Part shown: piece after piece, positions 13,792 through 63,110 of the stretch
Layout of the letters: each line of letters opens with the position of its first letter
How positions within the stretch are numbered: the first letter of the stretch is position 1
Origin: a bacterium
GTDB taxonomy: Bacteria > UBA8248
Direction of reading: 5' to 3'
Length of the DNA: 64,000 nucleotides
Assembly: GCA_965202625.1 (NCBI GenBank)
Contig: CBDBBI010000010.1
Location: 1,345,489-1,409,488, forward strand
Position numbers and translations under genes: made by a program
The notes under the pieces: generated by a model
Seen by the model: the letters and a program-made list of their open reading frames with translations, nothing else
The model's database searches: none
Told to the model about the DNA's origin: nothing

Positions 13792-13796
13792 CCTCC

Positions 13797-14974: not shown

Positions 14975-14995
14975 GAAAATTACGCCCCATGCGCC

Positions 14996-24622: not shown

Positions 24623-24623
24623 G

Positions 24624-25769: not shown

Positions 25770-25801
25770 ACAGAAGGGGTAGGCGGCTGAAACTCCCTGG
25801 A

Positions 25802-44297: not shown

Positions 44298-45890
44298 TTA
44301 CTTCACCATGTTCATGGCCAACGCCTGATCCGCCTTGATGTCCACTTTCGCTTCCTTGCCGAGCAAATCGTCGATCATCCAGCCCGGAAGGCCGTCGGCG
44401 GGCCTCTTCATGCCCAGCATGGAGGACTCTATCGTCTCTCCGGATTGAATGTCTCGTTCGGCGACAATGCTGCGCCGCGCGCTGTTGCGGGCGGGGTTTT
44501 CACGCTCGGCGACTTCAAGCGCGCCGCTGCCCAGGACGGTCTCCGCAAGACGGACGTTTTCCACCATCTTTTTCAAGTCCTCCGGATTCATCGAAAAGAA
44601 ATGTCCCGAGCCGGTCAGTTCCCGATCCAGAGTATAGTGCTTTTCAATGACTTTCGCCCCGAGAGCCACGCCCAGGGCGGGTATGGCCATATGCGCGTCC
44701 GGCTCCGTATGGTCGGACAAGCCAACGATAAGGCCGGGATATTTCTCCAGCAAGGCAGGGACGCGCAGAAGGTTCGCGTCCTCATTCGTCGTGGGATAAC
44801 TCAACATGCATGCCATGACGATGAGCTGATGGTTGCCTGCGTCGAAAATCGTGGAGACTGCCCGCTCAATCTCCTCCACCGTCGAGCCGCCGGTCGAAAG
44901 AATGACGGGCTTGCCAAAACCAGCCACGCGCCTGAGCAGTCGGCTGTCAGGAAGATCGCATGAGGCTATCTTGAAAAGCGACATGCCCAAATCGTTCAAC
45001 ATATCGGCGCTCTCCACGTCGAATGGCGTGGAAAATGGAATGACGTCTTTTTCAAGACTGTATGCGAAAAGCTCCTCGTATTCGAGAGCACCGAAACGAT
45101 CCAGCTGGCGGTAATACTCTATTTGCGGTATTTCCTTTCCCTGCCAGTAAGTCGTGGCTTCCTTGCGCGTCAAACGCTCCGCCTTGTAGGTCTGGAACTT
45201 GATCGCGTCCACTCCGGCTTCAGCGGCGAGGTCGATCATCTCCTTGGCCATCCGCATGTCGCACATGTGATTGCAAGCCGCCTCCGCAATAAGAAAGGCG
45301 GGATGGCCATCTCCTATCATTTTGTTTCCGACGGAAATCTCCTTCGCATACGGGCTCATCTCGTGCGCAGACATGAGAAGATCGAACGCGCGATGGACGT
45401 TGACGCAATCATCACGCACGGCGGACGCATACAACGGGGGCTTCGCCGTCAAGGCCCTCGTGCTCATAATGCGAAGTGCCCCGTTTCGCCTCCCCTTCCG
45501 GTCTACCGTGCACAGATCGTCTATTTTGTTGTCCTGCACGTATTTCAGCAGAGCGTCGAGGTCGCTTCTCCTGGTCGGATGGTCAGGCTGAATTCCGACA
45601 ACGAAAGAAACGCTCTCACTCCCCCATTCATTGAGGACGTCTTGATACACCTCCATCAAGGGCGCCTCGCCGGTGAGCGCATCGCCCCGAAAATGAACGA
45701 GCGCGTTATTTTGCCTCGCAATCTCGGCGACGTCCTCGGAATCGGTGGATACGACAATATCGTCCACGCTGTTAAACTTCTTCGCATAATGGATGGCGTG
45801 CGCAACCAGAGAAACGCCGTTGATCCTCAGCAGATTCTTATCCGGTAGACGATTAGAGCGCCGTTTGGCTGGTATGATGGCGACGATCAT
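44298..45890 (-). CDS. Fusion: NeuA-type cytidylyltransferase + NeuB-type nonulosonate synthase with SAF domain
   Basis: IIPAKRRSNRLPDKN, VSTDS; then IAEAACNH, KFQ, STPFD, KIAS, GLSDH, EKHY, MKRPADG. Confidence 0.92.
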   Translation of the reverse strand: MIVAIIPAKRRSNRLPDKNLLRINGVSLVAHAIHYAKKFNSVDDIVVSTDSEDVAEIARQNNALVHFRGDALTGEAPLMEVYQDVLNEWGSESVSFVVGIQPDHPTRRSDLDALLKYVQDNKIDDLCTVDRKGRRNGALRIMSTRALTAKPPLYASAVRDDCVNVHRAFDLLMSAHEMSPYAKEISVGNKMIGDGHPAFLIAEAACNHMCDMRMAKEMIDLAAEAGVDAIKFQTYKAERLTRKEATTYWQGKEIPQIEYYRQLDRFGALEYEELFAYSLEKDVIPFSTPFDVESADMLNDLGMSLFKIASCDLPDSRLLRRVAGFGKPVILSTGGSTVEEIERAVSTIFDAGNHQLIVMACMLSYPTTNEDANLLRVPALLEKYPGLIVGLSDHTEPDAHMAIPALGVALGAKVIEKHYTLDRELTGSGHFFSMNPEDLKKMVENVRLAETVLGSGALEVAERENPARNSARRSIVAERDIQSGETIESSMLGMKRPADGLPGWMIDDLLGKEAKVDIKADQALAMNMVK

Positions 45891-47053
45891 CTTTTGCCCC
45901 CCCCCCGTCTCTCATTATCTGCGGATAAGCCGCTCTTGGAGAGTTTCTCCAGAACGGATATGCAAGAATCCACTGAATCCATTGGCAAGCCGTCAAACGG
46001 GGCACGACAAATCTTTTCCCACTCTCCTTTCACAAACCACTTATCAAGCAGTCCCGAAAAACCTTCAAACGAACACACCTCACAAAGCGTTCCGGGTAAA
46101 TTTGCAGAAGCACCCAGGACGTCCGATAAGGAATCCAGCCGGAGGCTGATCGTTGGTCGGCCACAACAAATGGCTTCATACAAAATCATGGAGTCGAATC
46201 CTAATATGAGGTTCGAGGAAAATACAACATCAAGGGCTGAGGGCCCGGAATCTATTTTCAAGTTGGGAAACGGCGACGCGGCGGTTCCCCATACTTCTCG
46301 CTCTCTGGGGTGAAGCCTCAGAAAAAAAATTGCCTCATGCCCCGCTTTACGTATTTTTTCCTCACAAAGGCGGAGTGCCTCCTCAATGATGGGAAGCCTC
46401 TCTCCCTTCAAGAATGGCTCAACAATCTGGGCTCGCCCAAGACCGGTAAAAACAGGCTGCGTAAAGAGAGAGCAAATAAAATCTTCTTTGCCGAGGTTGT
46501 TTTCTCGCCGAAAATTCACTTCGCTATCCCGCTTGGACAAAAGCAGCATCTCGAGATGGGGGCTTCCCACGACTACCATCCTGCTTGAGGAGACGCCCTC
46601 AGCAATTCCCTGGTCTCGCGATCGCGCGTCAATGACGCCGAGCACGTCTGGAAGATAAGAAAAATTCTTGTCCTCGTCATGTATTCTATGCCAGCCCCTC
46701 CAATCGTCCATCAGCGCGAAGCTCTTGAGCCCGAGTTGCCTCGCAGCCATGATAATGTATCCGTTTGAAGGGTCATAGTTATTGTTTGACGTTGTGCAGA
46801 ATATTACGTCAGGAGACAGGCGAGAAAGCAGGTCGCACGCGCCTTCAATGCTGAGCGGCACTTGATTCACCAGAGTTTCAAGGGGGACAACCTCTATATC
46901 ATGCGCTTTGAATACTTCAATGGCGAAAAGATGCACTATTACGCACAGACGATATTTCTCCGGGCGAACAAGGCTTTTAACGACAGGTAAAATAGCGCGC
47001 GCGCCACCCGCATCCTGGGCATAAACCAAAACAACAGGTCGGCAAGATTTCAA
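45887..47053 (-). CDS. Uncharacterised GT-B-fold protein (candidate nonulosonate transferase or UDP-sugar hydrolase)
   Basis: QDAGGA, LMDDW, VVVGSPHLE, RLHPRE, GFDSMILYEA. Confidence 0.55.
   Translation of the reverse strand: MKSCRPVVLVYAQDAGGARAILPVVKSLVRPEKYRLCVIVHLFAIEVFKAHDIEVVPLETLVNQVPLSIEGACDLLSRLSPDVIFCTTSNNNYDPSNGYIIMAARQLGLKSFALMDDWRGWHRIHDEDKNFSYLPDVLGVIDARSRDQGIAEGVSSSRMVVVGSPHLEMLLLSKRDSEVNFRRENNLGKEDFICSLFTQPVFTGLGRAQIVEPFLKGERLPIIEEALRLCEEKIRKAGHEAIFFLRLHPREREVWGTAASPFPNLKIDSGPSALDVVFSSNLILGFDSMILYEAICCGRPTISLRLDSLSDVLGASANLPGTLCEVCSFEGFSGLLDKWFVKGEWEKICRAPFDGLPMDSVDSCISVLEKLSKSGLSADNERRGGGKR
45897..45906. repeat. C10/G10 homopolymer at the junction of two ORFs
   Basis: Minus strand CGG GGG GGG GGC AAA AGA TGA, with ATGA overlap at 45887-45890. 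Confidence 0.95.
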
Positions 47054-48339
47054 CCGAAACTTCTCAGGGCGTCGGCGTTCTTTCGGACCTTCTCGACTGC
47101 GAGAACAAATTGGTCAATTTCCCTTTCGGTGTTCGGGTATCGGCAAATGTTCGTCAAAAGCAAGTCCTTCTCCCAGAGCCGCTCGACAACCGGACAGGTT
47201 CCCTTCGCGTATGACACGCCGCCCTCGCGCGCGTCGTCACGAAAAGGATAGCCTTTCGTCCCGTATGCGCTCCTCTTTTGATATATCGGTTCGAGATATA
47301 TAGGTCGCACATACCCCTCCGTCACTTGAACGCCTTCCTCCCTGAGGGCTCTCGCAAAAATTTCACGGGGGATGCCCATTTTCGTTTCATCATACTTCAT
47401 GGCGTAAAGGTAATAGACATGCGTGCAGCCCCGAGCGGTTTCCGGAGGGGTCAAGAAATCAAACTCGGCCAGCTGCTGGGTCAGGTTCTCGGCGAGGCGA
47501 ACCCGAATGCGCGTCAGTTCGTCCATCTTGCCGATTTGCGCAATGCCAACGGCTGCGCATATTTCCGGCAAGCGATAGTTAAAACCGACCATGTTCGTGA
47601 TATCTTCCCGGCCCATGGGGCCAATCACAACCTCCCCGTGATTGCGTTTCAACTGCATATGAAGCGCCAGCTCTTCCTTGTCCGTTAAGGCAACCCCGCC
47701 CTCGCCGCACTGGATGACCTTGTGATAATTCAGGCTCTGAACACCTATGTCCCCTACGGCGCCCGTCTTTTTTCCCGCGCACTCTGCGAGTGGGGCCTGG
47801 GCGTTGTCCTCAATGAGCATAAGTCCACGTCGGTCGGCAAGAGCGCGCAACTCCATCAATGGGGAGGGATGTCCAAACAGATTGACTGTGAGAATGGCGC
47901 GCGTTCTATCGTTTATCAAAGACTCCACCGAAGAAGGATCGATGCAGAACGTCGCATCCTCCACGTCGGCAAACACGGGGATCGCATTTTCCATGAGAAT
48001 ACTGCTCGCAGTGGCGCTCATGGTGAACGGGGATGTAATAATCTCCTCTCCAGGCTCAACCCCCGTCGCCGCCACCGCGCAATGCAGAGCCGACGTCGCT
48101 GAATTCACGCAGACGGCGCGCTTCACGCCGAACCTTTCGGCAAATAACTTTTCAAGCTTCCTGACTTTCACGCCGCCGAGGAAACGCTCCGAATGCGTCC
48201 CCGAGAATCCTGAAAGATGTTGGCTTCTCAAGCTGCTAAGAACCTCTTTTTCCTCAGCCTGATCGACCATCGTGGTATGCACGGCGTAAGGTTCTTTGCG
48301 TATGGGCTCTCCACCAAGAAGAGCTAATTTGCCGTTCAC
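47050..48339 (-). CDS. DegT/DnrJ/EryC1/StrS PLP-dependent sugar aminotransferase
   Basis: NSATSALH, EDNAQA, SLNYHKVIQCGEGG, GFNYR. Confidence 0.94.
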   Translation of the reverse strand: MNGKLALLGGEPIRKEPYAVHTTMVDQAEEKEVLSSLRSQHLSGFSGTHSERFLGGVKVRKLEKLFAERFGVKRAVCVNSATSALHCAVAATGVEPGEEIITSPFTMSATASSILMENAIPVFADVEDATFCIDPSSVESLINDRTRAILTVNLFGHPSPLMELRALADRRGLMLIEDNAQAPLAECAGKKTGAVGDIGVQSLNYHKVIQCGEGGVALTDKEELALHMQLKRNHGEVVIGPMGREDITNMVGFNYRLPEICAAVGIAQIGKMDELTRIRVRLAENLTQQLAEFDFLTPPETARGCTHVYYLYAMKYDETKMGIPREIFARALREEGVQVTEGYVRPIYLEPIYQKRSAYGTKGYPFRDDAREGGVSYAKGTCPVVERLWEKDLLLTNICRYPNTEREIDQFVLAVEKVRKNADALRSFG

Positions 48340-48355: not shown

Positions 48356-49363
48356 TCAAATAGGGGTCACTTTCCTCATTATATCCGATGAGAGGACGGC
48401 TTCGCAAATTTCAATCGCCCTCACGCCGTCGCGCAGAGAACAAGAGGGCGCATCACCAACCTCCAGGCACCTTACAAGCTCCTCTACAGCCCGAAGAGAA
48501 CTATTGCGCCACTGCGTTTCCTCTGGTCGCCGAGCAAGTTCCAACACCTGGAACAAGCGAAAGTAGGGGTCTTCACGCGCTTGGAATCGAAGAAGTTTCT
48601 GGCCCCTTTGCCCAATGACGATTCTTCCTCTATCCGTGATGATATCCGCATCAAAGAGGACATACTCCAACACAGGAACGTGTAAAAACGTAGCGTATAT
48701 CCCGCGCTCGAAAACAACGTCAAAATCCGCTCCAGAACCCCCAGCCTCATTGTCATTGTCAAACACCCTCAAAAGATGCACCTCTTTGGGGTCGCCAAAA
48801 AACCAACGCAGCAAATCAATATAATGGGAGGCGTTTTCCAACAAACCTTTTACGTAGTGCACAGTAACACGGATGACAGAGCCATGAATTCCACTCTCCA
48901 GCTCGCGCTTGAGTTGACGAAGAGTCGGGTTCCATCTCCGAAAGTAGTTCACCGCCACAGGCCGAGTCCCCGCGATAGAAATGGATTCACGCGCTTCTAT
49001 GGATGATTGCGCAACTGGTTTTTCGAGGAAAACGGCTTTCACGTCTGCGTCGCAAACTGCGCGCAAAGCGTTGAGATGATGCGCCGTAGGCAGGCAAATA
49101 CTCACGATATCGGGACGTTCCCGGTCAAGCATCTGATTGTAGTCCGCATACAACGTATCCACGCCCCAACGCCGGCCAAAAGCCGTCCGAGCGTCGGCGC
49201 TTACATCCGCAGCAGAGACAAGGTCGACGTCCGGGCAAGCCAGATACGCGCCCGCGTGCGTAGCGGTCCATTTGCCCTCGGAAAAATTATCGTATCGGGA
49301 GGCAATGTTCCCGCAGCCGATAATAGCCGCCTTATATGTGGCTTTGCCGCTGTTCAAAAACAC
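48356..49363 (-). CDS. Gfo/Idh/MocA-family sugar oxidoreductase
   Basis: IIGCGNI, FLEKPV, VNYFRRW, NASHYIDL. Confidence 0.92.
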   Translation of the reverse strand: MFLNSGKATYKAAIIGCGNIASRYDNFSEGKWTATHAGAYLACPDVDLVSAADVSADARTAFGRRWGVDTLYADYNQMLDRERPDIVSICLPTAHHLNALRAVCDADVKAVFLEKPVAQSSIEARESISIAGTRPVAVNYFRRWNPTLRQLKRELESGIHGSVIRVTVHYVKGLLENASHYIDLLRWFFGDPKEVHLLRVFDNDNEAGGSGADFDVVFERGIYATFLHVPVLEYVLFDADIITDRGRIVIGQRGQKLLRFQAREDPYFRLFQVLELARRPEETQWRNSSLRAVEELVRCLEVGDAPSCSLRDGVRAIEICEAVLSSDIMRKVTPI

Positions 49364-50123
49364 GCTGCTGAACGACCTGACGATTGATATCCAGAAGGCT
49401 TGGTTCCGTATCTAAAAGCCGCATCACATCGAATAGCGTGAAGCAAGGGTTCTTTGCATAAAGGCGGGTATAAATTGCGAGGATTAACTCGAAATCCTCC
49501 CGATTGTCTACAGTGAGACGGAGGCCCGGTCTGCGGCATTCCGACCACTTCCCCACCGCCTCAAAAGATTTTAGCCTGAATCTGTCTGGTCGTTCAAAAA
49601 TATAGGAGGTGACGTGCTCTCGATCGACAGGATCGTCGCTCCACCCAGCCACTTGCCTCAAGAGAGAAGTGGAGAAAATCTCCACGCTCGTTCCTATGGG
49701 AAACGTCGATTCTTCCTCCCATGAGGAGCTATGCCGCATCGAGGTATTCGCCACGTAATCGAATTTATCCGCAAGAAATAGTCCTACCATCTCATCAATA
49801 AGGAGCGGCTCCACAAGAGGGGCATCCCCGCCGAGTTCGACAATTACGTCTCCATTCCACGCATCAGCCGCTTGGAGAACTCGGCTCAGGACGTCTTCCT
49901 CGCTACCTCGGAAACAACCCAGGCCGCTTTCTTCGGCCACTCGAACGATGGGGTCGTCAAGCGGATTTGTCGTGGTCGCGATGATCGCCGCGTCTAAACT
50001 CTTCGCTCTAAGCACCCTTTCCGCCATTTGCGCCAGCATGGGTTTTCCGCATACATCCAGAAGCACTTTTCCCGGCAACCTCAAGGAATTCATCCTGGCT
50101 TCGATGATGGCGACGATTTTCAC
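49332..50123 (-). CDS. SpsF-like cytidylyltransferase (start re-assigned to GTG 50123)
   Basis: IIEARMNSLRLPGKVL, FRGSEEDVLSR, GDAPL, REHVT, RLTVDNREDF. Confidence 0.9.
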   Translation of the reverse strand: MKIVAIIEARMNSLRLPGKVLLDVCGKPMLAQMAERVLRAKSLDAAIIATTTNPLDDPIVRVAEESGLGCFRGSEEDVLSRVLQAADAWNGDVIVELGGDAPLVEPLLIDEMVGLFLADKFDYVANTSMRHSSSWEEESTFPIGTSVEIFSTSLLRQVAGWSDDPVDREHVTSYIFERPDRFRLKSFEAVGKWSECRRPGLRLTVDNREDFELILAIYTRLYAKNPCFTLFDVMRLLDTEPSLLDINRQVVQQRVFEQRQSHI

Positions 50124-50698
50124 TCGCGCTTCTCTTCTCGCATATCTTCCCAACGCACACGAAATATCCCCAATCGATATTCATCGACATAACCTGACCT
50201 ACAGAAAAAACTCTCTTTGAGCGTCGCTTCATGGAGATACCCGTTTTTCTCAAAACTTCGTCTCGAACCCTCATTCGTCGCCCACATACCGGCCGTAATC
50301 TTCCGAAGGTTGAGCTTCTCGAAGCCATGGGCAGTCATGAGAGCGATGGCTTCCGTCGCAACGCCTTTTCCCCAGAAACGCCTGTCGCCAATGACGATGC
50401 TCATATCGCCCGTTCGATGGACCCAGTCGATCTTATGAATGCCGACGACCCCCACGAGCAAACTTTCATCTTCTTTCATGACAACGCCAAACTGCACGTC
50501 CGTTCGGCTCTTCATAAGAGCGTCGAATACCTCCCGCTGCCCCTCCTCGGTTACGGGAAACGTTCCCTTGTTGATATTCTGCGTGACCTCAGAGGAATTG
50601 AACCAAGCGTGCCAAACCGGAATATCTTCCGCTTTCAACGCACGGAGAAATACGCGTTGACCACTTCTAAACATGGGACGCCCTTCTGGGTTTCGCAT
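50120..50698 (-). CDS. GNAT N-acetyltransferase (RimJ/RimL, PseH-like)
   Basis: FWGKGVATEA, LNLRKI, NEGSRRSFEKNG. Confidence 0.9.
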   Translation of the reverse strand: MRNPEGRPMFRSGQRVFLRALKAEDIPVWHAWFNSSEVTQNINKGTFPVTEEGQREVFDALMKSRTDVQFGVVMKEDESLLVGVVGIHKIDWVHRTGDMSIVIGDRRFWGKGVATEAIALMTAHGFEKLNLRKITAGMWATNEGSRRSFEKNGYLHEATLKESFFCRSGYVDEYRLGIFRVRWEDMREEKRE

Positions 50699-50710: not shown

Positions 50711-51649
50711 TCATGGCTTGAGCCAAGCCCTGCAATGCAGAAGATCGCCCACGCCCGCTTCCTGAAGTTGGCGCCGATAAAAATCATCCACCCCCTCAAG
50801 AACGTCTAAAAAAATCTTTCCCCGGGGGGTTTCTTTCCTGAGGAATTCGTTCGGAAAATTCAAATTCGTATGTTGGGAAGAACCAGTGTCGCCGCTTCCG
50901 GTATGCAGCCATTTGAAATGATTCGTGAGAGAGGCCGCAAGATAGTGGGTGCACTCAAAATCATATCCGCATTCCATCAGAAGCCTGCCCAAGCTTTTCT
51001 CCGTAAAATAATAAAGGTGATATTCACGGAAATAAAAATCCCTGTAATTCGCCACATCATAATAACTCGCAATCGGATCCAACAAGTTGGGAACGGCTAT
51101 AAAAACAACGGACTCTGGATGTATAAAGCGTTTCAAATCCTCCAAAAAATCCTTCACGCATGGAACGTGCTCAAGCACGGCGTGCATCACAACAACGTCG
51201 AATGGCAGTTCCGTCTCACAATCGATGAGGGGCTTGTCCCACACGGGAATACCGGCCGCATGTAACGTTCGAACGTGCGTGGGTGTAATCTCCACTCCCT
51301 GAACGTGCGAGACATTTCCCTGAATCGACCGTAGAAACGATCCGCGCCCGCAACCAACGTCCAAAACGCGAGACTCCGAACACAAATAGGGCTCCACCTC
51401 TTTCTTGTAAATTTTATAATTGTCGAACTTGGGAAGAGGTCTTTCTCTCAATTGATCGGGTGCGAAAACATAACCGTCATCCGAATACCAATCGTGGGTC
51501 GCCTGCGTTTCATCCCAGGTTTCCAGAAAACTGAGGTCGCATGAACCGCAAAAATACAGAGCGATATTTACCTGCTGATCTATTTTTCTCCCCCGAACCG
51601 TATTGCGGATGCGCCGCCCACGGTCGGAACAGATGGGACAGAAACTCAT
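50711..51649 (-). CDS. Class I SAM-dependent methyltransferase with N-terminal Cys4 zinc motif (start re-assigned to ATG 51649)
   Basis: CPIC...CGSC, VLDVGCGRG, GVEI, FDVVVMHAVLEHV, YHLYYFT. Confidence 0.9.
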   Translation of the reverse strand: MSFCPICSDRGRRIRNTVRGRKIDQQVNIALYFCGSCDLSFLETWDETQATHDWYSDDGYVFAPDQLRERPLPKFDNYKIYKKEVEPYLCSESRVLDVGCGRGSFLRSIQGNVSHVQGVEITPTHVRTLHAAGIPVWDKPLIDCETELPFDVVVMHAVLEHVPCVKDFLEDLKRFIHPESVVFIAVPNLLDPIASYYDVANYRDFYFREYHLYYFTEKSLGRLLMECGYDFECTHYLAASLTNHFKWLHTGSGDTGSSQHTNLNFPNEFLRKETPRGKIFLDVLEGVDDFYRRQLQEAGVGDLLHCRAWLKP

Positions 51650-53025
51650 TATGCCGGAATCCCCTCGTATGATGACAGCGAACGCCATGGCGGCATAAAG
51701 CCTTGGGTCTGCACGTCTTTCGCCATCTTCAGCAGGGAGAAGTCGTGATATCGTCGCGCGACGAGCTGCGCACCGAAAGGCAGGCCCTCGGAACTCTTGA
51801 ACGTGGGCACGTTCATCGTCGGGACGCCGCAAAGCGTCCATATGAGGCAGTTGTCTTTTTTGTCCCGCCCCATGATTCCTTTCGGCGCATGACCAGAAGT
51901 GGACAAGTTCAAAATCATATCGAAATCTTCAAAAAAATCGGAAAGAATCGTTTTTAGATTTTCTTGCTGCTCTAAACCCTCCCAATATTGCTCGGAGGTA
52001 ATCTTTTGGCCTTGCTCTATCATTTCCGAGAAAATATCGCTCAACTCGTCTCGATGCAACCGATATTCCTCATCAAAATAGTAAGACAGCCCTTTCTGAT
52101 AGACGAGCGCATGAATATCATGGGCGCGAGAGAACGGCTCAGGCAACTCAACCTCTCTTAATTCAACGTCTTCGCATCGGGATAGGTGGGACGCCAGCCG
52201 ACAAACGGCGTCCTTCGCATACTCTTCCGCATGTTCCCAACCTGGGCCCCTGACAAACGCCACCCTGTATGGCGGCTTCACCTGGCTTGATGACCAGTCG
52301 TCAAGATTGTTTTTGACATACGGATAATTCGCTCCCCTTACTCGAGCGGATTCAAACATCAACCACAGATCATCAATAGTCCTTGCAAAAAAAGATACGT
52401 GATCCAAAGTGTCGAGGGTCTTCAGGATCCCCGTTCTGGGCACGACTCCAAAGGAGGGCTTAAAACCATACACGCCAGAATAACTCGCAGGCCGTATCGT
52501 GGAGCCTGCGGTCTGCGTGCCTAGCGAGAACGGAACCATACAAGCGGCAACAGATACGGCTGAACCGCTGGACGAAGTCCCAGGAGAATAGGCCGGGTTA
52601 TACGGGTTCACCGTAGGCCCGGGATGATGAACGGCAAACTCCGCCGTGACGGTTTTGCCGAGCGTCAATCCGCCTTCCCTCTTGAGGTGAGATATTACCC
52701 GAGCGTCGTTGCCAGGGGTAAAGCCTTTCCAGATAGGACTTCCCATCCAGGTCTGAAAGTCCGCCGTGTTAATGACGTCTTTTACGCCGAAAGGCGCGCC
52801 CCAGAGAAGACCTTCGAACTCTCCCGCATTTATTTTCCGCTCTATTTCGCGCGCTTGGCGAATGGATATCTCCGGCTCAAAGTGCTGCCATGCGCAAAGA
52901 GAGGAGTCATACCGCTCTACCTGCGCGATACAGGAAAGGAGCCATTCCACAAGGCTTAATTTTCTTTTTTTTATGAGTTCTATCGCTTCGATGGCAAAAA
53001 GCGCGTTCGCTTCCATATCGCTCAT
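51649..53025 (-). CDS. Amidase-signature family enzyme (GatA-like fold)
   Basis: FGVKDVI (Lys), PGTSSSGSA (cis-Ser), GTQTAGSTIRPA (nucleophile Ser), GFKPS, GLPFGAQL. Confidence 0.92.
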   Translation of the reverse strand: MSDMEANALFAIEAIELIKKRKLSLVEWLLSCIAQVERYDSSLCAWQHFEPEISIRQAREIERKINAGEFEGLLWGAPFGVKDVINTADFQTWMGSPIWKGFTPGNDARVISHLKREGGLTLGKTVTAEFAVHHPGPTVNPYNPAYSPGTSSSGSAVSVAACMVPFSLGTQTAGSTIRPASYSGVYGFKPSFGVVPRTGILKTLDTLDHVSFFARTIDDLWLMFESARVRGANYPYVKNNLDDWSSSQVKPPYRVAFVRGPGWEHAEEYAKDAVCRLASHLSRCEDVELREVELPEPFSRAHDIHALVYQKGLSYYFDEEYRLHRDELSDIFSEMIEQGQKITSEQYWEGLEQQENLKTILSDFFEDFDMILNLSTSGHAPKGIMGRDKKDNCLIWTLCGVPTMNVPTFKSSEGLPFGAQLVARRYHDFSLLKMAKDVQTQGFMPPWRSLSSYEGIPA

Positions 53026-53027
53026 TT

Positions 53028-54170
53028 CTATGCGGAGTCAATTATTCCCACTTGATCGGGCCGAATGACTTTGGGCAGCTCCCGCGCCTGCCCCTCTCTC
53101 TGGCTCTCAAGGAGATCCAGAAATTCTTCTTCCGTGTATCCCGTGATCTCCAAGTAATAATCAAGCGCTCCGGGACGTTTCGAGTCAACTTTCCGCGCAA
53201 GCGCAAACCCCTCTTCACGCGACATAATTCCGTTTCTCACATCTATGCTCGCCTGGTCGGTACCTCTTCCAAACCCACGTTTTACCCACTTCGAATAATC
53301 GTGCACGCCCGCCATACGGCATTCCACGCTTTTGTATCCTTTATAAGCACCCTCGACCTTATCTTCACGCCACCCATATTCTCTTTTTATGAACTCCACC
53401 TGGCGTTCTCCGTCCCAAAACAGATAATCCCCTAAGTGGATTCCCCGCATACCGAGCGTATCAAGCTCTTCTTTGGGGGGAATAAGAAAAGGAAACAGAT
53501 CGCGCTCTGTCAGCCCAATATCTTCATCTACCATTTTTGATGAATCCACCTTCATCGAAACCTTCAAGTATAAGGTTTCGTCATACGGGAGAGGATCAGC
53601 GTATGTTGACTTGCTACCCAATTCAGCGGTTGACTCTCCCCAAACCATAAGGGGGATCCCATATTGCGTCGCCACTTTTAGAGGATAGGCTCCCACGCCT
53701 GCGTGACAATGCCAACAGGAATCGCCGATCGTCGTCAAAGATTTCCGGGCGATTTTGTTAATCACCCCTCGGTTCGGCGTGAACATGACATGGTCAACGT
53801 TAAACTTTTCCAAGCAATTTTGCAGATTCCACCAGCCGGTTTCTGTCCACCAATTATGGCTAAACGTGCAAGTGAGAGGTCTTAACCCATAAACTCGCGT
53901 CAGAACGTGAAGCTGAAAACAGCTATCTTTGCCCCCGCTTATAGGGACCAGGCAATCATAGTTGTCCCCTGCTTCAGCCTTCGCCTTTTCCAATATACTT
54001 TTTAACTGCGCCTCCCGTTCTATCCAATTGATGTGCATCTTCATTTCAGAACTGCGGCACGCCTTACAAATTCCAAGCGCGTCAAAATCCATTCCCTCTG
54101 AGGTCTCCGGCATGCAGCACCGCACACAATATCGCAACTCTGAAAAAGGAGCGTTTCTCGAAGCCGGCAT
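53028..54170 (-). CDS. N-acetyl sugar amidotransferase (PseA/WbpG/WbuX/PtmG family, PP-loop)
   Basis: CVRCCMPET...CKAC, YDCLVPISGGKDS, CWHCH, WGE, KRGFGR. Confidence 0.93.
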   Translation of the reverse strand: MPASRNAPFSELRYCVRCCMPETSEGMDFDALGICKACRSSEMKMHINWIEREAQLKSILEKAKAEAGDNYDCLVPISGGKDSCFQLHVLTRVYGLRPLTCTFSHNWWTETGWWNLQNCLEKFNVDHVMFTPNRGVINKIARKSLTTIGDSCWHCHAGVGAYPLKVATQYGIPLMVWGESTAELGSKSTYADPLPYDETLYLKVSMKVDSSKMVDEDIGLTERDLFPFLIPPKEELDTLGMRGIHLGDYLFWDGERQVEFIKREYGWREDKVEGAYKGYKSVECRMAGVHDYSKWVKRGFGRGTDQASIDVRNGIMSREEGFALARKVDSKRPGALDYYLEITGYTEEEFLDLLESQREGQARELPKVIRPDQVGIIDSA

Positions 54171-54238: not shown

Positions 54239-55513
54239 TTACGAAGCCTGTGGAATCAAAGGCATGATTTGTCCTGCCTGTCGAAGCACCATGACCTTGG
54301 ATTCTGGCCCCGTCGCTTCCAATGCGTTATCCACCGCCGCCTGTATGGATGCAGACCAGCCAAATCCCATCCTGTTCGCTTCCTCCTGATGGACGTGAGG
54401 AGAAACCAATATGCCCTTCACGCGCTTCGAAATGATTCTGCCAACAGCAATCAGCGTATAGGCCAAGAGCTTTTCGCGAAACTCCCCCGCTTCAACGGCT
54501 CGATAAAGCGAATCGGGCTCCCGAAACCCGTAGCGTTCGAAATTCGGAAATTGCGGAGAAACACCCTCACGACAATCCGAAGCCAACACGATAATCCCGT
54601 TATCCCGACACACGACATCCGCCGCACACACGGCTTTGATGGCCTGACGAAGATCGATGTCAGACGGATAGGCTTCGACGACAACGACGTCCGCCGTTCC
54701 ATCCACCGGCACCCCGTATAATTCCAGACATCGATCACACCCTGTTTTGTGTGCGCATTCCACATCGCCTGCAACGGCATCATAGATTCTTTCATCGTCT
54801 ATCATAACCGTGTTGACGATGAAACGGACGCCAGCCTGACGCGCAATGCGAACGCACGCCTTCCTCACCTTGTTGTGAAAATTCCCGAGAATTTCGCTCA
54901 TCTCATAATCCAGAGCAGACCAATGCGTCGCTTCTATCGTCGCCTCTCCGCAAACGCCGGGCATGACGCTCTTCGCCCCACCAGAGAACCCCGCAGTCGC
55001 ATGAGGGATGATGCTGCCGACGGAGATGAGAAAATCCGATTTCAATACTTCCTTGTTCATCTGCACGTCGAAGCCGAGTTTACTCCGTCCTAACGAAGTC
55101 AACGCCGCAGGGTTGTCCCATTCATGGTTGAGAATTTGAAACCGAGAGGCCAGATGATGACCGAACTTGCGCTGTATCTCCTCCTCCGTCATGGCGCGAT
55201 GCGTGCCCAAGCCAATCAGAATGCGAACACACGCATCCGGAACGTCGGCCTCAGCGAGTTCCTCCAGAATGAAGGGGAGGACGCGATGAAGCGGAGTGTG
55301 GCGCGTATTGTCATCCGTAGCAATCAACACCCTCTTCGCCCCTCTGGCCATCTCTCTGAGAGGGGGAGTACCGATTGGGTTGCGAATTCGCTCCCTAAGA
55401 GCGCGCTCGTCAAGCCCTTCACCGTTCGGCGGCGAGGGTCCATACACGCCCATCAGACGCTCATCTCTCACCTCAAAGTCTTCAAACGGGCCCTTCGTGA
55501 GAGATATTTTCAT
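54239..55513 (-). CDS. larA: LarA-family nickel-pincer-dependent alpha-hydroxyacid racemase/epimerase (start re-assigned to ATG 55513)
   Basis: TDDNTRHTP, GLGTHR, PHATAGFSGGAKS, ATH, QAIK: equivalents of the LarA catalytic and cofactor-binding residues are all present. Confidence 0.9.
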   Translation of the reverse strand: MKISLTKGPFEDFEVRDERLMGVYGPSPPNGEGLDERALRERIRNPIGTPPLREMARGAKRVLIATDDNTRHTPLHRVLPFILEELAEADVPDACVRILIGLGTHRAMTEEEIQRKFGHHLASRFQILNHEWDNPAALTSLGRSKLGFDVQMNKEVLKSDFLISVGSIIPHATAGFSGGAKSVMPGVCGEATIEATHWSALDYEMSEILGNFHNKVRKACVRIARQAGVRFIVNTVMIDDERIYDAVAGDVECAHKTGCDRCLELYGVPVDGTADVVVVEAYPSDIDLRQAIKAVCAADVVCRDNGIIVLASDCREGVSPQFPNFERYGFREPDSLYRAVEAGEFREKLLAYTLIAVGRIISKRVKGILVSPHVHQEEANRMGFGWSASIQAAVDNALEATGPESKVMVLRQAGQIMPLIPQAS

Positions 55514-55529
55514 AACAGCGCGTCTCCGG

Positions 55530-57380
55530 CTAATCTTTCCATAATTTTGCATCCGTCGAACAGAACATGTCCACCCATTCTGAACGCCAGTTTTTACCAC
55601 CCCGATAATAACGATACGCAAATGCGCTTACCGCTTCTTGCGTCTCGCTATCCTCCCACCACGAATCCACGTCAGGCCAGACGGCGTTCAAATGTCTCGC
55701 CGCGCTCTCCGGAGATGAGTGATGCACTTTCACTTCTCTCAATTTTTCGATATCGGACTTCGCATCACGCGAAACCCTCCAAACATTTTCGTTCCAGAAA
55801 AAAATAGTGGGTATGCCCGCCGCCATCGTGAATGCCGCAGTTGTCCCCATGTAAGGGAGAACGCAAACCCTGCATTGGGCTAACGCAGGGGACATCCGAC
55901 CAGATAGGAGCCCCACCAATTTCTCGGTGAGTATTTGGACGCCAGAGCACTTTTCCTGCACGTAGCGCTGGACATATCGAAGGCCAACCGCTGTGGGATG
56001 AGGCTTGTAAAACAAAGTGGAGCGAAGGGCATCGTTTAGGTGACGGATGAAATGCACCTCGTCCACCATATGTTGCGGGATGTCTTCGGGCAGATGATCC
56101 GTTGCCAGCAATTTTGAATACACAATTAGGCACGAACCTATCAAAACGATGGATGAATTCCGCTTTCGACTTCGCTTTACTTTTGAAAGAAGGGGGGATG
56201 CGGCCGGCACTGCGGTTACTTGATAATCAGATTGAACCTCCCACCCCCACGATATGAATCTATCCGCCGCCTTATACTCGACAAGGTGGTACCAAGGATG
56301 CGCTTCCTTTAGGCCGTAACCTCCCCCATGCTGATTGACAACCAGACGGACAGGACGCCTCTCCAGCAGATTGGACACGTAGAATTTTGCTTGGTCGTCA
56401 GTCCCTAAAACAGGGCCACATGCGATGGTGTCCGTCCAAGGTGACGTCGCTTTTATCTTTACCAAAGCCTTTTTCTCGTTTGCTCGAAAATCATCCGTGA
56501 ACGCTTTGGGCATCGTTTCTTCAATGAGCCCATCCACAACCTGCAAGAAAATCTCGGCTTCTCTGGCGTCAATATCTTGAATGGATCCGATCTCTTCCAT
56601 GATGTCGTCTTTGGAGATACTCCCATTTTTCGCTTCAGATTTTTTCTGAAATGATTTTACGGCATCCTTACATCGTCTTGCGTTTCGAAATCGCATCCGA
56701 AGAGCCATATAAAAGCTATCGAATGGATTCAAGCCCTGTACTCTGAGAAACTGCACATATCCCAGATTAGAAGCCAAAATATGGGCCCAGTGGTAAATTT
56801 CCAATTTTCTGTTCGGCTTCTTGAACTTAGCATAGTTTTCTCGTGTGAATAGATTTGCATGCTCCTCCGGTGCAGGCGCGCCATCTCGCATCACCCATCC
56901 CGCCGGCCGATATGCGCGGAAAAAACGGCTGAAAATAAGCCGGTTCAGCGGATCCTGGAATATCAGATAATCAAAATGGGATGTCGTAACCGAGGAGAGG
57001 CTTTCATCCTGAGGCGCGAGATATACCAGATATGGGGTGTTGCTCTTTAGCTGATTGCGGATTCGCAAAAACCGCTCAAAAGAACATATGACTACCCTCA
57101 AAAGCCATCCCATCAACAATATGCGCCAATATCGCTTGGAATAAGAACGTCGGTGCCTTTCGTTTTGCAGATGTCTCAATTTGGCGACGTAAAATTCACA
57201 AACCCTCTCCAGCTTTTGCGAGACGGGCAAAATATCCTCATGCTTGATCACTCGGCGGATTCCATGTTTTTCCCATCCCCACTGAAAAAACTGCGCATCT
57301 GAAAGGGACCACGGACCCAGATGCTCGGCTTCATATTCGCTTGAGATGGGATCCATTCTCGTAAGGATGAGTTGCTTCAA
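55530..57380 (-). CDS. LIC12162-family putative transferase
   Basis: YWRILLMGWL, QHGGGYG, FISWGW, YKPHP, TMAAGIPTIFFWN. Confidence 0.75.
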   Translation of the reverse strand: MKQLILTRMDPISSEYEAEHLGPWSLSDAQFFQWGWEKHGIRRVIKHEDILPVSQKLERVCEFYVAKLRHLQNERHRRSYSKRYWRILLMGWLLRVVICSFERFLRIRNQLKSNTPYLVYLAPQDESLSSVTTSHFDYLIFQDPLNRLIFSRFFRAYRPAGWVMRDGAPAPEEHANLFTRENYAKFKKPNRKLEIYHWAHILASNLGYVQFLRVQGLNPFDSFYMALRMRFRNARRCKDAVKSFQKKSEAKNGSISKDDIMEEIGSIQDIDAREAEIFLQVVDGLIEETMPKAFTDDFRANEKKALVKIKATSPWTDTIACGPVLGTDDQAKFYVSNLLERRPVRLVVNQHGGGYGLKEAHPWYHLVEYKAADRFISWGWEVQSDYQVTAVPAASPLLSKVKRSRKRNSSIVLIGSCLIVYSKLLATDHLPEDIPQHMVDEVHFIRHLNDALRSTLFYKPHPTAVGLRYVQRYVQEKCSGVQILTEKLVGLLSGRMSPALAQCRVCVLPYMGTTAAFTMAAGIPTIFFWNENVWRVSRDAKSDIEKLREVKVHHSSPESAARHLNAVWPDVDSWWEDSETQEAVSAFAYRYYRGGKNWRSEWVDMFCSTDAKLWKD

Positions 57381-57432: not shown

Positions 57433-58530
57433 TCAAGTGATAAAATGCGAATGATGAGACGCTCTCCCAAGCGCATCCCATGTCAATTCTTCGCCCGCTC
57501 GCATTCGGCGGGTTACTCGTCTTCCGATTACTCTATCCACTTCATATGGCGGGATGGCCCCTTGAGGAGCGGGTCTCAGAACTTCAATGTGTTCCCGCGC
57601 AATGACGGCCCCGACTTCCAAATCAGACCGAGCGCGCAAACATCTTCTTTGCAAAACCGCAGTGTCTCGCTCGTTCTCGCTTATCACCTTTTCCCTTCTT
57701 CCCAGAGCCAATTCCAATTCCCGGGTTCTATCGACCATCTCCCGCCAGGCATCAGGCGTCATCGAAAAGATATGATCGGGACCCCTTCGATTGACGTCAT
57801 CCGTAAAATGCTTCTCGACGATTCTCCCCCCCAACGCAATCGCCCCCAAAACCGTCGCATGGCCGGGCGTATGGTCAGACAAACCGAGGATCAACGAGGG
57901 ATAAAGCGCCCGGAACGCGCTCAAAACGTTCAGATGTATATGCTGAAAATTCTCCATTGACCCCGTATAGTTCGTGTTGCACTGGAGAAGCGCCAACTCT
58001 TCGTTGCGCCGCAAAATACACTTGACCGCCTGTTGGACGTCTTGCAAGTCCGAGGCGCCGGTTGCGAGCATGACGGGCTTTCCCTTTTCCGAAATCTTTT
58101 GGAGCATTTCATGCCATGTAATGTCTCCTGAGCCAATTTTATACACATCCACGTACGGCTCAAGAAAATCCACCGCCTCAAAATCATACGGAGATGAAAA
58201 AAAATCAATCCCTGCCTCATCACAGCAAATTTTAAGCGCCTCCGTCCATTCCCAGGGGAGGGAGGCGTCTTCATAAATCTCATATACCGACTTTTCCCAT
58301 GCAGCCTGATGGGACAACTTGTCCGCCATGGCGTCAAACCCATGTTCACTCACAATTTCAGGGGCGCGAAAATGTTGAAACTTCGCCGCGTCGGCCCCCG
58401 CCTCCTTCGCGAGATGAACAAGCCGCTTTGCGCGCTCAAGGCTACCATCATGGTTGGCTGCGATATCGGCGATGAAATATGTCGGATGGTCGTCTCCAAT
58501 CCATCGACCTCCAACACGGAAATTCGGCAT
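57433..58530 (-). CDS. neuB: NeuB-family nonulosonate synthase with SAF domain
   Basis: IADIAANHDG, KFQ, SSPYD, KIGSGD, GLSDH, EKHFT, DHIFS, LRPAP. Confidence 0.93.
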   Translation of the reverse strand: MPNFRVGGRWIGDDHPTYFIADIAANHDGSLERAKRLVHLAKEAGADAAKFQHFRAPEIVSEHGFDAMADKLSHQAAWEKSVYEIYEDASLPWEWTEALKICCDEAGIDFFSSPYDFEAVDFLEPYVDVYKIGSGDITWHEMLQKISEKGKPVMLATGASDLQDVQQAVKCILRRNEELALLQCNTNYTGSMENFQHIHLNVLSAFRALYPSLILGLSDHTPGHATVLGAIALGGRIVEKHFTDDVNRRGPDHIFSMTPDAWREMVDRTRELELALGRREKVISENERDTAVLQRRCLRARSDLEVGAVIAREHIEVLRPAPQGAIPPYEVDRVIGRRVTRRMRAGEELTWDALGRASHHSHFIT

Positions 58531-58548
58531 ATTCAGGAATCCCTCCAC

Positions 58549-59664
58549 TCACCCCAACAGACGATCGTAGGCGTCAAACAATTGCACGACGTTCTTCGTC
58601 CAGTTCGCCTGCTTTTCCACGAGCATCCTGTTTTCGAGAGACATCTTTTCTCTTTCCCGTCTTTTTTGATATGCCTGCAAAATCGTCTCGCCCAAAATTT
58701 CCGCATCTCCGGATGGATACAACCACCCGTTCTTCCCTGGAGCCACCCATTCCCGATTCCCGTATTCATCCACGACGACAACAGGAAGACCGCAACCCAT
58801 GGCTTCCAGCAGGCTCACCGACGTCCCATCGCTGAAAGTCGCGCTCACATACAAATCCGCCTCATTGAAATAATCCACCAATTGATGGTTGGGCATCTGG
58901 CCGGGTAGATGAATATAACGCGCGAGTTCATTCTCGTCTATAAACTTCTCCACCCTGGATCTTAAACTCCCGTCGCCGAGCATGATGACCCTTATGTTCG
59001 AGCGAGATTTTTTCGCCCGCTTTATCGCCTCCAAAAAAACGAAGGGCCCGTGAATCGGCTCAAACGCTCTTGTGCTGATGACGACGAAGAAATTTTCCCA
59101 ATTCAACTTTTTTCGCAATCCAATTTTTGACTTTCTGGGCGTGAACTGCTGCACGTCAATTCCCCAAGGGAAGAACACTACCTGCTCGTCTCTTAAAGGA
59201 GACAAGGATAACACCCGCTCTCGGACAGCATCGCAATCTCCCAAAACCATATCCGCGCGCTTCAGCGTGAATTTCGTTATCCAGCGCATCCACCGGTTTT
59301 TATCAGGAAAAACCAAAACGTCTGAACCCCATGACACGACGAGCAAGGGCGTTGACTTGCAAATGGAGGCTACAAAGGCGCCCGTCTGCACGGGGCCCGC
59401 ATGAATAAGGTCTGGCTTGCTTTCTCGAACACGTTCCCGAAATCGAAAAATCAGCCTTGCCCACTCAAAAATGCCTGGGGCGTCTTTATTTTTTAGCAAG
59501 GGTGGAAGTTTGTTGATCTTCTCAGGGAAAGGGCGAGATTCATACTGGAAGGAACTGTCAGCAAACGGCAAGAACCAAACGTCGCGCCCTGATTTCGCCA
59601 ACGCCTCCAAAAACCTTCTGTCGTGCGTCGAATATCCCTGTGATATGTAGAGGATTCTACTCAT
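58549..59664 (-). CDS. Glycosyltransferase family 4
   Basis: VVSWGSDV, PWGID, STRAFEPIHG, SDGTSVSLLEAMGCG. Confidence 0.92.
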   Translation of the reverse strand: MSRILYISQGYSTHDRRFLEALAKSGRDVWFLPFADSSFQYESRPFPEKINKLPPLLKNKDAPGIFEWARLIFRFRERVRESKPDLIHAGPVQTGAFVASICKSTPLLVVSWGSDVLVFPDKNRWMRWITKFTLKRADMVLGDCDAVRERVLSLSPLRDEQVVFFPWGIDVQQFTPRKSKIGLRKKLNWENFFVVISTRAFEPIHGPFVFLEAIKRAKKSRSNIRVIMLGDGSLRSRVEKFIDENELARYIHLPGQMPNHQLVDYFNEADLYVSATFSDGTSVSLLEAMGCGLPVVVVDEYGNREWVAPGKNGWLYPSGDAEILGETILQAYQKRREREKMSLENRMLVEKQANWTKNVVQLFDAYDRLLG

Positions 59665-60604
59665 TACAATAAGCCATCAACCAACCCGGCAAATGCCCTT
59701 TTAAGGATTCCACAAACCCCGTTCGCAAAGAATCGTGAAATTTTCTCACCCCATCCTCTATCGTTGGCATGGAGTGTCCAAGTAAATTCGATATTTTCTC
59801 AACGCGCAAAGTGGTGTTTTGGGGCCGTTTCGCAGCAAATGGAAACGCCACCACCGACGTCGGCGCAATGGACGTTGCATCCAGAACGAAAATATCCGCC
59901 AGCAGAACAGAAAACGCATGTTTCGAGCAGGCGTCAGAAGCACCCGCATGATATACGCCCTTCGCTCTTATATTCACCAACTCCAGAATGATCTGGGCCA
60001 AATCGCCCGCATACAGGGGCGCAAAATACACGTCCGTGAACATCCCCAGCGTTTCTTTTTGCAGCAACCCGCGCAATATCCACTCTCCCAAACTCAATTT
60101 ATCCTGAAAATTCCACCCGTATAGATTCGTTCTCAAGATCAAACTGTGCGGACAAACCGCGCGCACCACTTCCTCTCCCATGAGTTTCGATCGCGCGTAT
60201 GCGTTCAGAGGCCCCGGTGCATCCTCCTCTGAATACCGCCCCCGCGCGCCATCAAAAACCGAGTCGGTCGATACGTAAAGAAGAAACGACTTGTTGGCGT
60301 GAGCCCATTCCGCGAGGTTCGACGACGCGAGAACATTTTGCCTCTCAGCCAATTCCGGGTCTTTCTCGCACGCATCCACATTGGTCATCGCCGCGGCGTG
60401 AACGATGATGTCGGGCGCGATCTGGTTCAAACACCGATGGGCGGGGCCCTTTTCGGACAGATCGCATCGTATCCATTTCAAACGGGAAGAGCGGATAGGG
60501 ACGGAACGCGAGACGCCAAATACGCTATATTGTTTTTTCGTCGCACAAAAAATCAGATTGCTGCCCAACAGCCCACTCGCGCCTGTGACAAGCAGCTTAG
60601 AAAT
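59657..60604 (-). CDS. RmlD-like (dTDP-4-dehydrorhamnose reductase family) SDR with abnormal start (ATT or frameshift)
   Basis: SKLLVTGASGLLGSNL, HAAAMTNVDACE, VSTDSVFDG, YARSK; no ATG/GTG/TTG in frame upstream of the Rossmann motif. Confidence 0.8.
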   Translation of the reverse strand: MSKLLVTGASGLLGSNLIFCATKKQYSVFGVSRSVPIRSSRLKWIRCDLSEKGPAHRCLNQIAPDIIVHAAAMTNVDACEKDPELAERQNVLASSNLAEWAHANKSFLLYVSTDSVFDGARGRYSEEDAPGPLNAYARSKLMGEEVVRAVCPHSLILRTNLYGWNFQDKLSLGEWILRGLLQKETLGMFTDVYFAPLYAGDLAQIILELVNIRAKGVYHAGASDACSKHAFSVLLADIFVLDATSIAPTSVVAFPFAAKRPQNTTLRVEKISNLLGHSMPTIEDGVRKFHDSLRTGFVESLKGHLPGWLMAYCNE

Positions 60605-62633: not shown

Positions 62634-63110
62634 CAACGAAACCCTCAAAGTTCATCATGCCTTGAAAACCGAGAACATCGCTCAGCCTTCAAAGGCAATA
62701 CAATAATACGTCCAGGAATTTTCCATATATTTGGCGCAAAAAATGGGGAGCAAACATCAGCACCCAATACCCCAGAAACCCTTTCGCAAAAACCACATCC
62801 CTAAGCAAATCCAAAAATGGTTTTCTTTTCTCTATCGCCTCCTTATGTCATGGCTCAATATCCAAACGCTTCTACTCTAGGTGCCACTATGGCTGAGGCG
62901 TATCGCAAGCCCGGGGGATGAGACATGACCTTCGGCTTCTTGCTGCTTGCCTCCAGCGCATCCGCTTATGGACCTTATATTCCCCGCTCCATAGCTCGAA
63001 TACCGCGATCATTATAAAATCACCCTTATTTTCGCCACAGAATCAGCATCCGCCTCAAAAGGCAAGGTTGCGCATCAAGCCGAAAACGGAGGCCAACGTC
63101 GAGGAAATTT

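Follow-up and report, generated by a model that had tools for sequence, protein, structure and literature searches.

How does an N-acetyl sugar amidotransferase (NASAT) come by its ammonia at a locus where an amidase gene, and no HisH/HisF-like gene, stands beside it? This question is raised by a 64 kb stretch of contig CBDBBI010000010.1 from a bacterium of the UBA8248 lineage, which we refer to in its whole length as the window. Within it, a NASAT gene of the family that includes WbuX, WbpG and PseA is directly followed by a gene for an amidase-signature hydrolase. We conclude that the two proteins probably make up an amidine synthase, either two-subunit or fused. In this enzyme the amidase would hydrolyze a primary amide, probably glutamine, and thereby feed ammonia to the ATP-dependent PP-loop NASAT. 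The genes concerned, together with the methyltransferase gene that follows them, are these:

53028-54170, minus strand: NASAT, 380 amino acids, ATG start; TIGR03573 (WbuX/WbpG/PseA) family, in the amidase-linked "A-type" clade
53023-53030, minus strand: NASAT/amidase junction (NASAT stop TAG, 2 nt, amidase ATG)
51649-53025, minus strand: amidase-signature hydrolase, 458 amino acids; PF01425
50711-51649, minus strand: S-adenosylmethionine-dependent methyltransferase, 312 amino acids; PF13489 and other methyltransferase families

Read along the minus strand, the NASAT stop codon TAG lies at 53030-53028 and is followed by AA and then by the amidase ATG at 53025-53023, which bears out the 2 nt spacing described in an earlier note made from the sequence of this window. 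The TAATG overlap at 51649 reported in that note is also present: the amidase stop codon TAA occupies 51651-51649, and its final A doubles as the first base of the methyltransferase start codon ATG (51649-51647), which is in frame with the open reading frame (ORF) 50711-51841.

The NASAT and amidase genes form a conserved, often fused pair

To survey the pair, we used alignment A1 (30 amidase relatives) to select the 80 best loci from contigs representing one genome per species and added one metagenomic locus, giving the 81 loci of set A. By neighborhood statistics that rest on crude ORF calling, a NASAT gene adjoins the amidase gene in 80 of the 81, the single miss being a contig of 1.5 kb; it lies directly upstream on the same strand in 78 loci and directly downstream in 2. 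These NASATs are 49-88% identical to the window NASAT and come from about 20 phyla of Bacteria and Archaea: Omnitrophota, Verrucomicrobiota, Planctomycetota, Chloroflexota, Acidobacteriota, Gemmatimonadota, Nitrospirota, Bacteroidota/Ignavibacteria, Cyanobacteria, Bacillota, Synergistota, Actinomycetota, Campylobacterota, Desulfobacterota, alpha-, beta- and gamma-Proteobacteria, Bdellovibrionota, many Patescibacteria, Nanoarchaeota and Halobacteriales. Massilia sp. Root351/Root418 and Pseudoduganella sp. UC29_71 are among the organisms that have the pair. We therefore rejected the idea that the adjacency is a local accident.

The two genes are tightly packed wherever they are separate. Among 74 unfused junctions, 34 overlap, 18 of them by 4 nt in the ATGA manner, and all the remainder are spaced by no more than 50 nt. 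In four loci (L022, L030, L032 and L060) the pair is a single ORF of about 870 amino acids, with about 40-50 linker residues between the NASAT and the amidase that follows it. One of these fusions, used as a database query, returned about 60 more clusters of 797-922 amino acids that cover 96-100% of its length, as well as eight longer forms of about 1150 amino acids. Among the 60 or so is a cluster from the cultured Solidesulfovibrio alcoholivorans (P0137), whose database name is only "N-acetyl sugar amidotransferase". The earlier note would have given up its reading had the pair turned out not to be conserved; with these counts and fusions, it is.

The two partners also co-evolve more tightly with each other than the NASAT does with the neighboring genes of the cassette. 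Across the loci, pairwise distances for NASAT and amidase correlate with r = 0.80 (Spearman 0.64), whereas those for NASAT and DegT, GNAT, GFO, the "cluster 6" protein or NeuB in the same loci give r values of 0.35-0.56 (Spearman 0.07-0.34). An AlphaFold2 model of the S. alcoholivorans fusion (875 residues, from an alignment of 59 fusions) has a mean predicted local distance difference test score (pLDDT) of 88.6 and a predicted template-modeling score (pTM) of 0.84, and only residues 388-395 of the linker fall below a pLDDT of 50. For a two-domain protein of this length, such a pTM points to a mutual arrangement of the domains that is predicted with confidence.

The window NASAT belongs to a separate clade of the family

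The window NASAT matches TIGR03573 with 330.3 bits (cut-off 203.2) over profile positions 2-343 of 344, and Legionella LpNASAT, the sole solved relative (PDB 8WEX), with 157.9 bits. A PP-loop SGGxDS and an N-terminal tetracysteine zinc motif have been described as features of the family (PMC10607449). The window protein has the PP-loop SGGKDS at residues 78-83 and cysteines at positions 15, 18, 35 and 38, and is by these features a member of the NASAT family with a putative zinc motif; neither the PP-loop nor any of the four cysteines varies across the 69 complete pairs of the clade or across the 59 fusions. Adjoining HisH/HisF-like genes, which are typical of the family and not strictly defining, are lacking at the window NASAT.

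Amidase-linked NASATs are 46-99% identical among themselves and 26-40% identical to NASATs linked to HisH/HisF (set B, below), and a bipartition in a neighbor-joining tree separates the two groups. When 1.84 billion representatives at 50% identity were searched, 11 full-length matches scored at least 368 bits and the next scored at most 311, out of 213 representatives at E<=1e-30 and 1856 at E<=1e-10; from this gap in scores, the amidase-type NASATs are a compact, well-separated sub-branch. Neither an amidase nor HisH/HisF adjoins the two nearest representatives outside the A-type clade.

Some members of the family carry additional domains. Eight proteins of about 1120-1180 amino acids (P0150, P0151, P0155, P0158, P0160, P0165, P0169 and P0170) and four of about 610-650 amino acids (P0197, P0202, P0205 and P0214) contain an extra, degenerate NASAT-like domain of 25-31% identity that has no PP-loop and stands either between NASAT and amidase or N-terminal to the NASAT. 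This arrangement hints that NASATs may act as dimers in which one protomer can turn into a pseudo-enzyme scaffold. Further NASATs are fused to a GNAT (P0203, P0210-P0212), to a formyltransferase domain (P0204) or to a kinase-like domain (P0209).

The amidase is closest to malonamidase E2 and is not GatA

The window amidase matches PF01425 with 239.2 bits (gathering threshold 27) over profile positions 3-445 of 445. Its Lys82, Ser151 and Ser175 align with Lys62, cis-Ser131 and Ser155 of malonamidase E2, and this triad is invariant in all 69 members of the clade, in alignments A1 and A3 and in the 59 fusions, so that the intact Ser-cisSer-Lys triad noticed earlier holds for the clade as a whole.

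The protein falls below every NCBIfam cut-off, the best match being gatA (TIGR00132) with 192.8 bits against a cut-off of 481.1. In a phmmer search it is closest to malonamidase E2 (184.9 bits), with GatA at 121 bits. Foldseek gives the same order for the amidase domain of the fusion model, with malonamidase E2 on top at a template-modeling score (TM) of 0.86-0.88 and 32% identity and GatA next at a TM of about 0.79 and 24-27% identity. The relation to malonamidase E2 is one of similarity only, as there is no curated family model with which membership could be tested. These nearest characterized relatives, together with AtzE and allophanate hydrolase, all free ammonia from primary amides.

That the amidase is a true GatA was considered and rejected: it misses the equivalog cut-off, its constant neighbor is NASAT, and it has no GatB or GatC partner. 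No GatB or GatC domain was detected in a Pfam scan of 30 ORFs of the window, and no GatA in any of the fetched loci. The description "GatA-like" in the earlier note can thus be kept as an analogy for the proposed role of ammonia donor; as a family assignment it does not stand, given 193 bits against 481 and the closer similarity to malonamidase E2.

The 120 best database clusters for the amidase are 48-100% identical to it and bear names no fuller than "amidase" or "GatA family amidase", which give no pointer to a role. In the plasmid database there is only a distant amidase, 35% identical.

Amidase and HisH/HisF exclude each other as partners and go with different NASAT clades

No HisH- or HisF-like gene had been noticed in the window, and the searches agree: tblastn with E. 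coli HisH, HisF and HisA gave no match at E<=1e-3 across the 64 kb, and no GATase or His_biosynth domain was present among 30 ORFs of the cluster scanned with Pfam. Only three of the 81 set A loci have HisH/HisF homologues, and in all three these adjoin a further NASAT, a paralogue of the B or C type that shares 28-38% identity with the window NASAT.

These HisH/HisF-side paralogues were used to fetch two contrast sets of 80 loci each, set B with short NASATs of the HisHF type (alignment A2) and set C with long, LpNASAT-like NASATs (alignment A5). HisH is present in 75 loci of set B and HisF in 74, directly beside the NASAT in nearly all, and the clade amidase in 1; the corresponding numbers for set C are 70, 71 and 2. 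Over both sets, HisH/HisF stands beside the NASAT in about 90% of the loci (145-146 of 160), which agrees with the earlier statement that enzymes of the WbuX/WbpG type are often accompanied by such genes. The three loci of these 160 that have the amidase are each on a contig that also bears an A-type NASAT. The count of amidase against hisH/hisF beside TIGR03573 genes, which the earlier note had proposed, thus finds partners that are clade-specific and mutually exclusive. Together with the conservation of the pair and its nonulosonate cassette, this supports the suggestion that the amidase is a candidate non-orthologous displacement of HisH/HisF.

Two loci, L163 and L164, have both systems side by side in the order GNAT, NASAT, amidase, NASAT, GATase, His_biosynth. 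Their clusters (7400-17600) comprise a GNAT, a tandem NASAT, the amidase, a second, distant NASAT, HisH-like and HisF-like genes, AsnB and a carbamoyltransferase, that is, three different ammonia- or carbamoyl-handling systems in succession.

A few NASATs of the HisHF type stand alone. In L110 and L113 (Nitrosopumilaceae), L175, L195, L231 and L240, all on long contigs, there is no HisH, HisF or amidase within 8-10 kb. Such NASATs, of which those in L110 and L113 come from ammonia-oxidizing archaea, may draw on free ammonia or on a partner whose gene lies elsewhere.

The pair lies in a nonulosonic acid cassette

Beyond about 25.8 kb, and up to the window's end, the G+C content is down from about 60% to about 50%, and all genes lie on the minus strand, forming a large surface-glycan island. 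The island encodes an initiating sugar transferase, a Wzy-like and a Wzz-like protein, an ABC exporter and glycosyltransferases, as well as dehydratases, epimerases, a DegT aminotransferase, a GNAT, a GFO/IDH/MocA oxidoreductase, a LIC12162-family transferase and a LarA homologue. From this gene content, the pair sits within a nonulosonic acid (NulO) pathway. The genes next to the pair and its methyltransferase are, by their Pfam families:

50120-50698, minus strand: GNAT N-acetyltransferase (PF13302)
49332-50153, minus strand: CTP_transf_3 protein
48356-49363, minus strand: GFO/IDH/MocA oxidoreductase
47050-48339, minus strand: DegT aminotransferase
45887-47053, minus strand: conserved "cluster 6" protein, 388 amino acids; only match Epimerase_2, E=0.03
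44298-45890, minus strand: CTP_transf_3-NeuB fusion

In many loci, among them L005, L011, L031, L040 and L044, the families encoded between 44298 and 50153 recur beside the pair in the same order. The conserved cassette consists of a PseB-like dehydratase, DegT, GNAT, a remote Epimerase_2-like protein, NeuB, CTP_transf_3 and GFO, and both the families and their recurring order uphold the nonulosonate context proposed for this locus. The commonest direct neighbor of the pair is the GNAT, found in 60 of the 81 loci and usually immediately upstream of the NASAT, and it likely adds the N-acetyl group that is later amidinated. Taken together, the GNAT and the conserved cassette point to an intermediate of di-N-acyl NulO synthesis as the acceptor.

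For the cluster 6 protein there was no match in Pfam, NCBIfam or PDB sequences beyond the one to Epimerase_2. Homologues occur in 39 amidase loci, as a rule with DegT on one side and GNAT or NASAT on the other, and the protein may be a divergent hydrolyzing 2-epimerase of the NeuC/LegG kind.

The methyltransferase was rejected as a member of the conserved module, since a homologue is present in only 4 of the 81 amidase-clade loci. It has a weak, sub-threshold match (E 7e-4) to TIGR03587, a Pse-associated methylase. Its translation is coupled to that of the amidase, and as an accessory activity outside the core it might N-methylate the amidine. A parallel for such N-methylation exists in the N-methylacetimidoyl legionaminic acids of Campylobacter.

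A proposed mechanism and its alternatives

In the reaction that we propose, the amidase triad Lys82-cisSer151-Ser175 would give ammonia by hydrolyzing a small primary amide, for which the glutamine side chain is the likeliest candidate. The NASAT would spend ATP to activate the carbonyl oxygen of the sugar N-acetyl group as an adenylate, and capture of this adenylate by ammonia would turn the acetamido into an acetamidino group. The amidase would thereby fill the role of both the HisH (glutaminase) and the HisF (ammonia conduit) paralogues that serve WbuX, WbpG and MMP1081, and the acceptor would be an intermediate of the di-N-acyl nonulosonic acid pathway, of the pseudaminic or legionaminic type, encoded by the surrounding cassette. 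Amidase-signature enzymes in general proceed through an acyl-serine intermediate with release of the amine, and PP-loop enzymes adenylate an oxygen that is subsequently displaced by ammonia.

The amidase is assigned the part of ammonia supplier because A-type NASATs are, in the loci surveyed, always found beside or fused with an amidase and not with HisH/HisF. We infer the production and hand-over of ammonia, its donor and the acceptor sugar. The adenylation chemistry is likewise drawn from the PP-loop family and from the work on LpNASAT, in which conversion from ATP into AMP plus pyrophosphate is inferred for the family and the reaction is described as ligating ammonia onto the N-acetyl group of the sugar (PMC10607449). 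In Pseudomonas aeruginosa, HisH2 and HisF2 are proposed to deliver ammonia to WbpG, and HisF2 binds WbpG in co-immunoprecipitation (PMC11445079), a binding that points to partner-supplied ammonia as the norm for the family. MMP1081 is genetically required for the acetamidino group (PMC2952790).

We also consider it fairly probable, with somewhat less assurance than the amidine synthase itself, that the amidase-signature fold has been recruited a second time after GatCAB, and independently, as the ammonia subunit of a channeled amidotransferase, here wired to a PP-loop enzyme. The pair would then represent a widespread, often fused and so far unannotated class of amidine synthase for nonulosonic acid glycans, having an interface and tunnel unlike those of HisH/HisF or GatCAB and a donor that is possibly not glutamine.

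Several points weigh against the amidine synthase reading. Set A was drawn from the amidase side, and fewer cases bear on the reverse claim, that no A-type NASAT lacks an amidase. No partner at all adjoins certain NASATs (P0249, P0251 and a few loci of sets B and C), and a dedicated donor is therefore not universally required. Housekeeping HisH/HisF or free ammonium could in principle serve an A-type NASAT. Finally, the amidase is no orthologue of GatA, and its sequence does not reveal its donor specificity.

Of the alternatives, the one that survives best is a variant of the amidine synthase that relies on a donor other than glutamine, be it asparagine, a malonamate-like compound or some other small carboxamide produced locally. 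It can be entertained because the amidase is closer to malonamidase E2 (185 bits, TM 0.87, 32% identity) than to GatA (121 bits, TM about 0.79), whose equivalog cut-off it misses. We nevertheless regard it as unlikely, as glutamine is the near-universal donor of amidotransferases and no gene for the synthesis of a special amide is conserved beside the pair.

Somewhat less likely still is that the amidase works on the sugar pathway itself, by removing N-acyl groups, trimming acyl-amides or hydrolyzing and editing the amidine, while the NASAT uses free ammonium or housekeeping HisH/HisF. Secondary-amide hydrolases (FAAH, aryl acylamidase, urethanases) do appear lower in the match lists of the amidase, the N-acyl groups of nonulosonates are chemically diverse, and the NASATs with no adjoining donor would fit. 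However, this explanation does not account for the clade-specific exclusivity of amidase and HisH/HisF in the same position, nor for the recurrent fusions, as fusion with a second enzyme that undoes or sidesteps the product of the first would be odd; moreover, the nearest characterized relatives of the amidase are all ammonia-releasing primary amidases with small substrates.

The weakest alternative, that the A-type NASAT carries out another ATP-dependent amidation (for example of a carboxylate to a carboxamide on a nonulosonate or its acyl substituent) with ammonia still supplied by the amidase, draws on the variety of acceptors of PP-loop enzymes (NAD synthetase, asparagine synthetase, QueC) and on the 26-40% identity of A-type NASATs, which include no characterized member, to the HisHF-linked clades, and we hold it very improbable because the TIGR03573 score is well above the cut-off and the GNAT, as commonest immediate neighbor, fits an N-acetyl substrate, the Cys4 and PP-loop architecture being moreover that of LpNASAT.

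Comparison with known systems

The amidine synthase proposed here can be set beside four known systems. The closest are the NASATs that work with HisH/HisF, namely WbuX/WbuY/WbuZ of E. coli O145, WbpG/HisH2/HisF2 of P. aeruginosa and MMP1081-1083 of Methanococcus maripaludis. They share with the window system a TIGR03573 synthetase with PP-loop and Cys4 zinc motif, the presumed conversion of acetamido to acetamidino, and the position of the synthetase directly beside a presumed ammonia-supplying partner. They differ in that this partner is a class-I glutaminase with a (beta/alpha)8 barrel, whereas in the window it is one amidase-signature protein; in addition, the window NASAT falls into its own clade, and fusion of synthetase and partner is common in the amidase type.

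GatCAB resembles the proposed system in having an amidase-signature subunit that generates ammonia for an ATP-dependent partner, with the triad and the fold in common. The partner of GatA is the kinase-type GatB and the acceptor a tRNA-bound amino acid, whereas here the partner would be a PP-loop adenylating enzyme and the acceptor a sugar. Malonamidase E2 of Bradyrhizobium japonicum (PDB 1OCK and others) has the same compact, single-domain amidase-signature fold, in which the triad and the arginine of GS-x-R-P-A are conserved, and frees ammonia from a small carboxamide; it is described as a stand-alone hydrolase, whereas the window amidase is of a type obligatorily paired or fused with a NASAT in a glycan cluster. 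A conceptual precedent is the glutamine-dependent NAD+ synthetase, in which a nitrilase-type glutaminase is fused or associated with a PP-loop synthetase and ammonia is channeled between them. Its glutaminase part has the nitrilase fold, with no homology to the amidase implied, and its acceptor is the nicotinate carboxylate.

A synthetase with a dedicated ammonia-generating partner is thus a known kind of enzyme, and what appears to be new, judging from the sequences, is the fold of the partner in this synthetase family. The full-text literature contains no paper that we could find linking an amidase with NASAT, with acetamidino groups or with nonulosonate biosynthesis, and such an absence from a searchable corpus is no proof of novelty.

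Other features of the island

The fall in G+C content at the start of the island (about 24000-26000) suggests horizontal acquisition. A glutamine-hydrolyzing asparagine synthase of the AsnB type is encoded at the border (22673-24622, plus strand). Outside the island there is:

4010-5983, minus strand: TRAP fused permease

This permease shares 70-72% identity with proteins of Nitrospinae/Nitrospinota metagenome-assembled genomes and 86-90% with proteins of other genomes of about 3 Mb. The genes of 60% G+C that flank the island thus point to a Nitrospinota genome, probably that of a nitrite oxidizer resembling Nitrospina.

Three NeuB-family synthases are present in the island (44298-45890, 57433-58548 and 61566-62648), along with five CTP_transf_3 domains (38152-38946, 42864-44258, 44298-45890, 49332-50153 and 60717-61403), which include the CTP_transf_3-NeuB fusion and a GT2-CTP_transf_3 fusion. 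The island seems to encode at least two nonulosonate pathways.

The LarA homologue (Lar_N and LarA_C; 54239-55621, minus strand) is the direct upstream neighbor of the NASAT and comes just after the LIC12162-family transferase (55530-57380, minus strand). It belongs to the family of racemases and epimerases with a nickel-pincer cofactor and is below all NCBIfam equivalog cut-offs. This arrangement of LarA, LIC12162 and NASAT genes is shared only with the close relative L001, and a LarA-type enzyme is unusual in a nonulosonate cluster; it could epimerize a hydroxy-acid substituent or the sugar acid itself.

Two ORFs of the island are irregular at their N-termini. In the RmlD-like reductase ORF (59657-60568, minus strand) the Rossmann motif LLVTGASG is encoded upstream of the first ATG, GTG or TTG, and the sole in-frame start-like codon after the TGA stop is an ATT at 60604 (ATT TCT AAG CTG CTT GTC ACA GGC, for MSKLLVTG), which suggests a rare ATT start. 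The PseB/CapD-like dehydratase ORF (63111-63983, minus strand) matches Polysacc_synt_2 only from profile position 35, has in-frame stops just upstream and lacks the N-terminal NAD-binding part in its frame; the gene may be frameshifted, a pseudogene, or continued in another frame past the end of the window.

Significance

If the proposed function is correct, it would give a role to a large, conserved group of genes now labeled only "amidase" or "GatA family amidase", and the fusions of about 870 amino acids, at present named after their NASAT half alone, would receive a corrected annotation. Amidotransferases exemplify modular evolution in textbook fashion, with a small number of glutaminase folds supplying many synthetases, and to our knowledge GatA is the only example in which the ammonia subunit has the amidase-signature fold. 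This fold would then have been recruited more than once, the second time coupled to a PP-loop enzyme, and the new interface and path for ammonia could be studied in the natural fusions, which would be well suited to structural work. Nonulosonates with acetamidino groups decorate flagellins, S-layers and O-antigens, where they shape antigenicity and phage or host recognition. Once the amidase-type module is recognized, such modifications would become predictable in many uncultured lineages, including candidate phyla radiation (CPR) bacteria, DPANN archaea, Omnitrophota and Nitrospinota.

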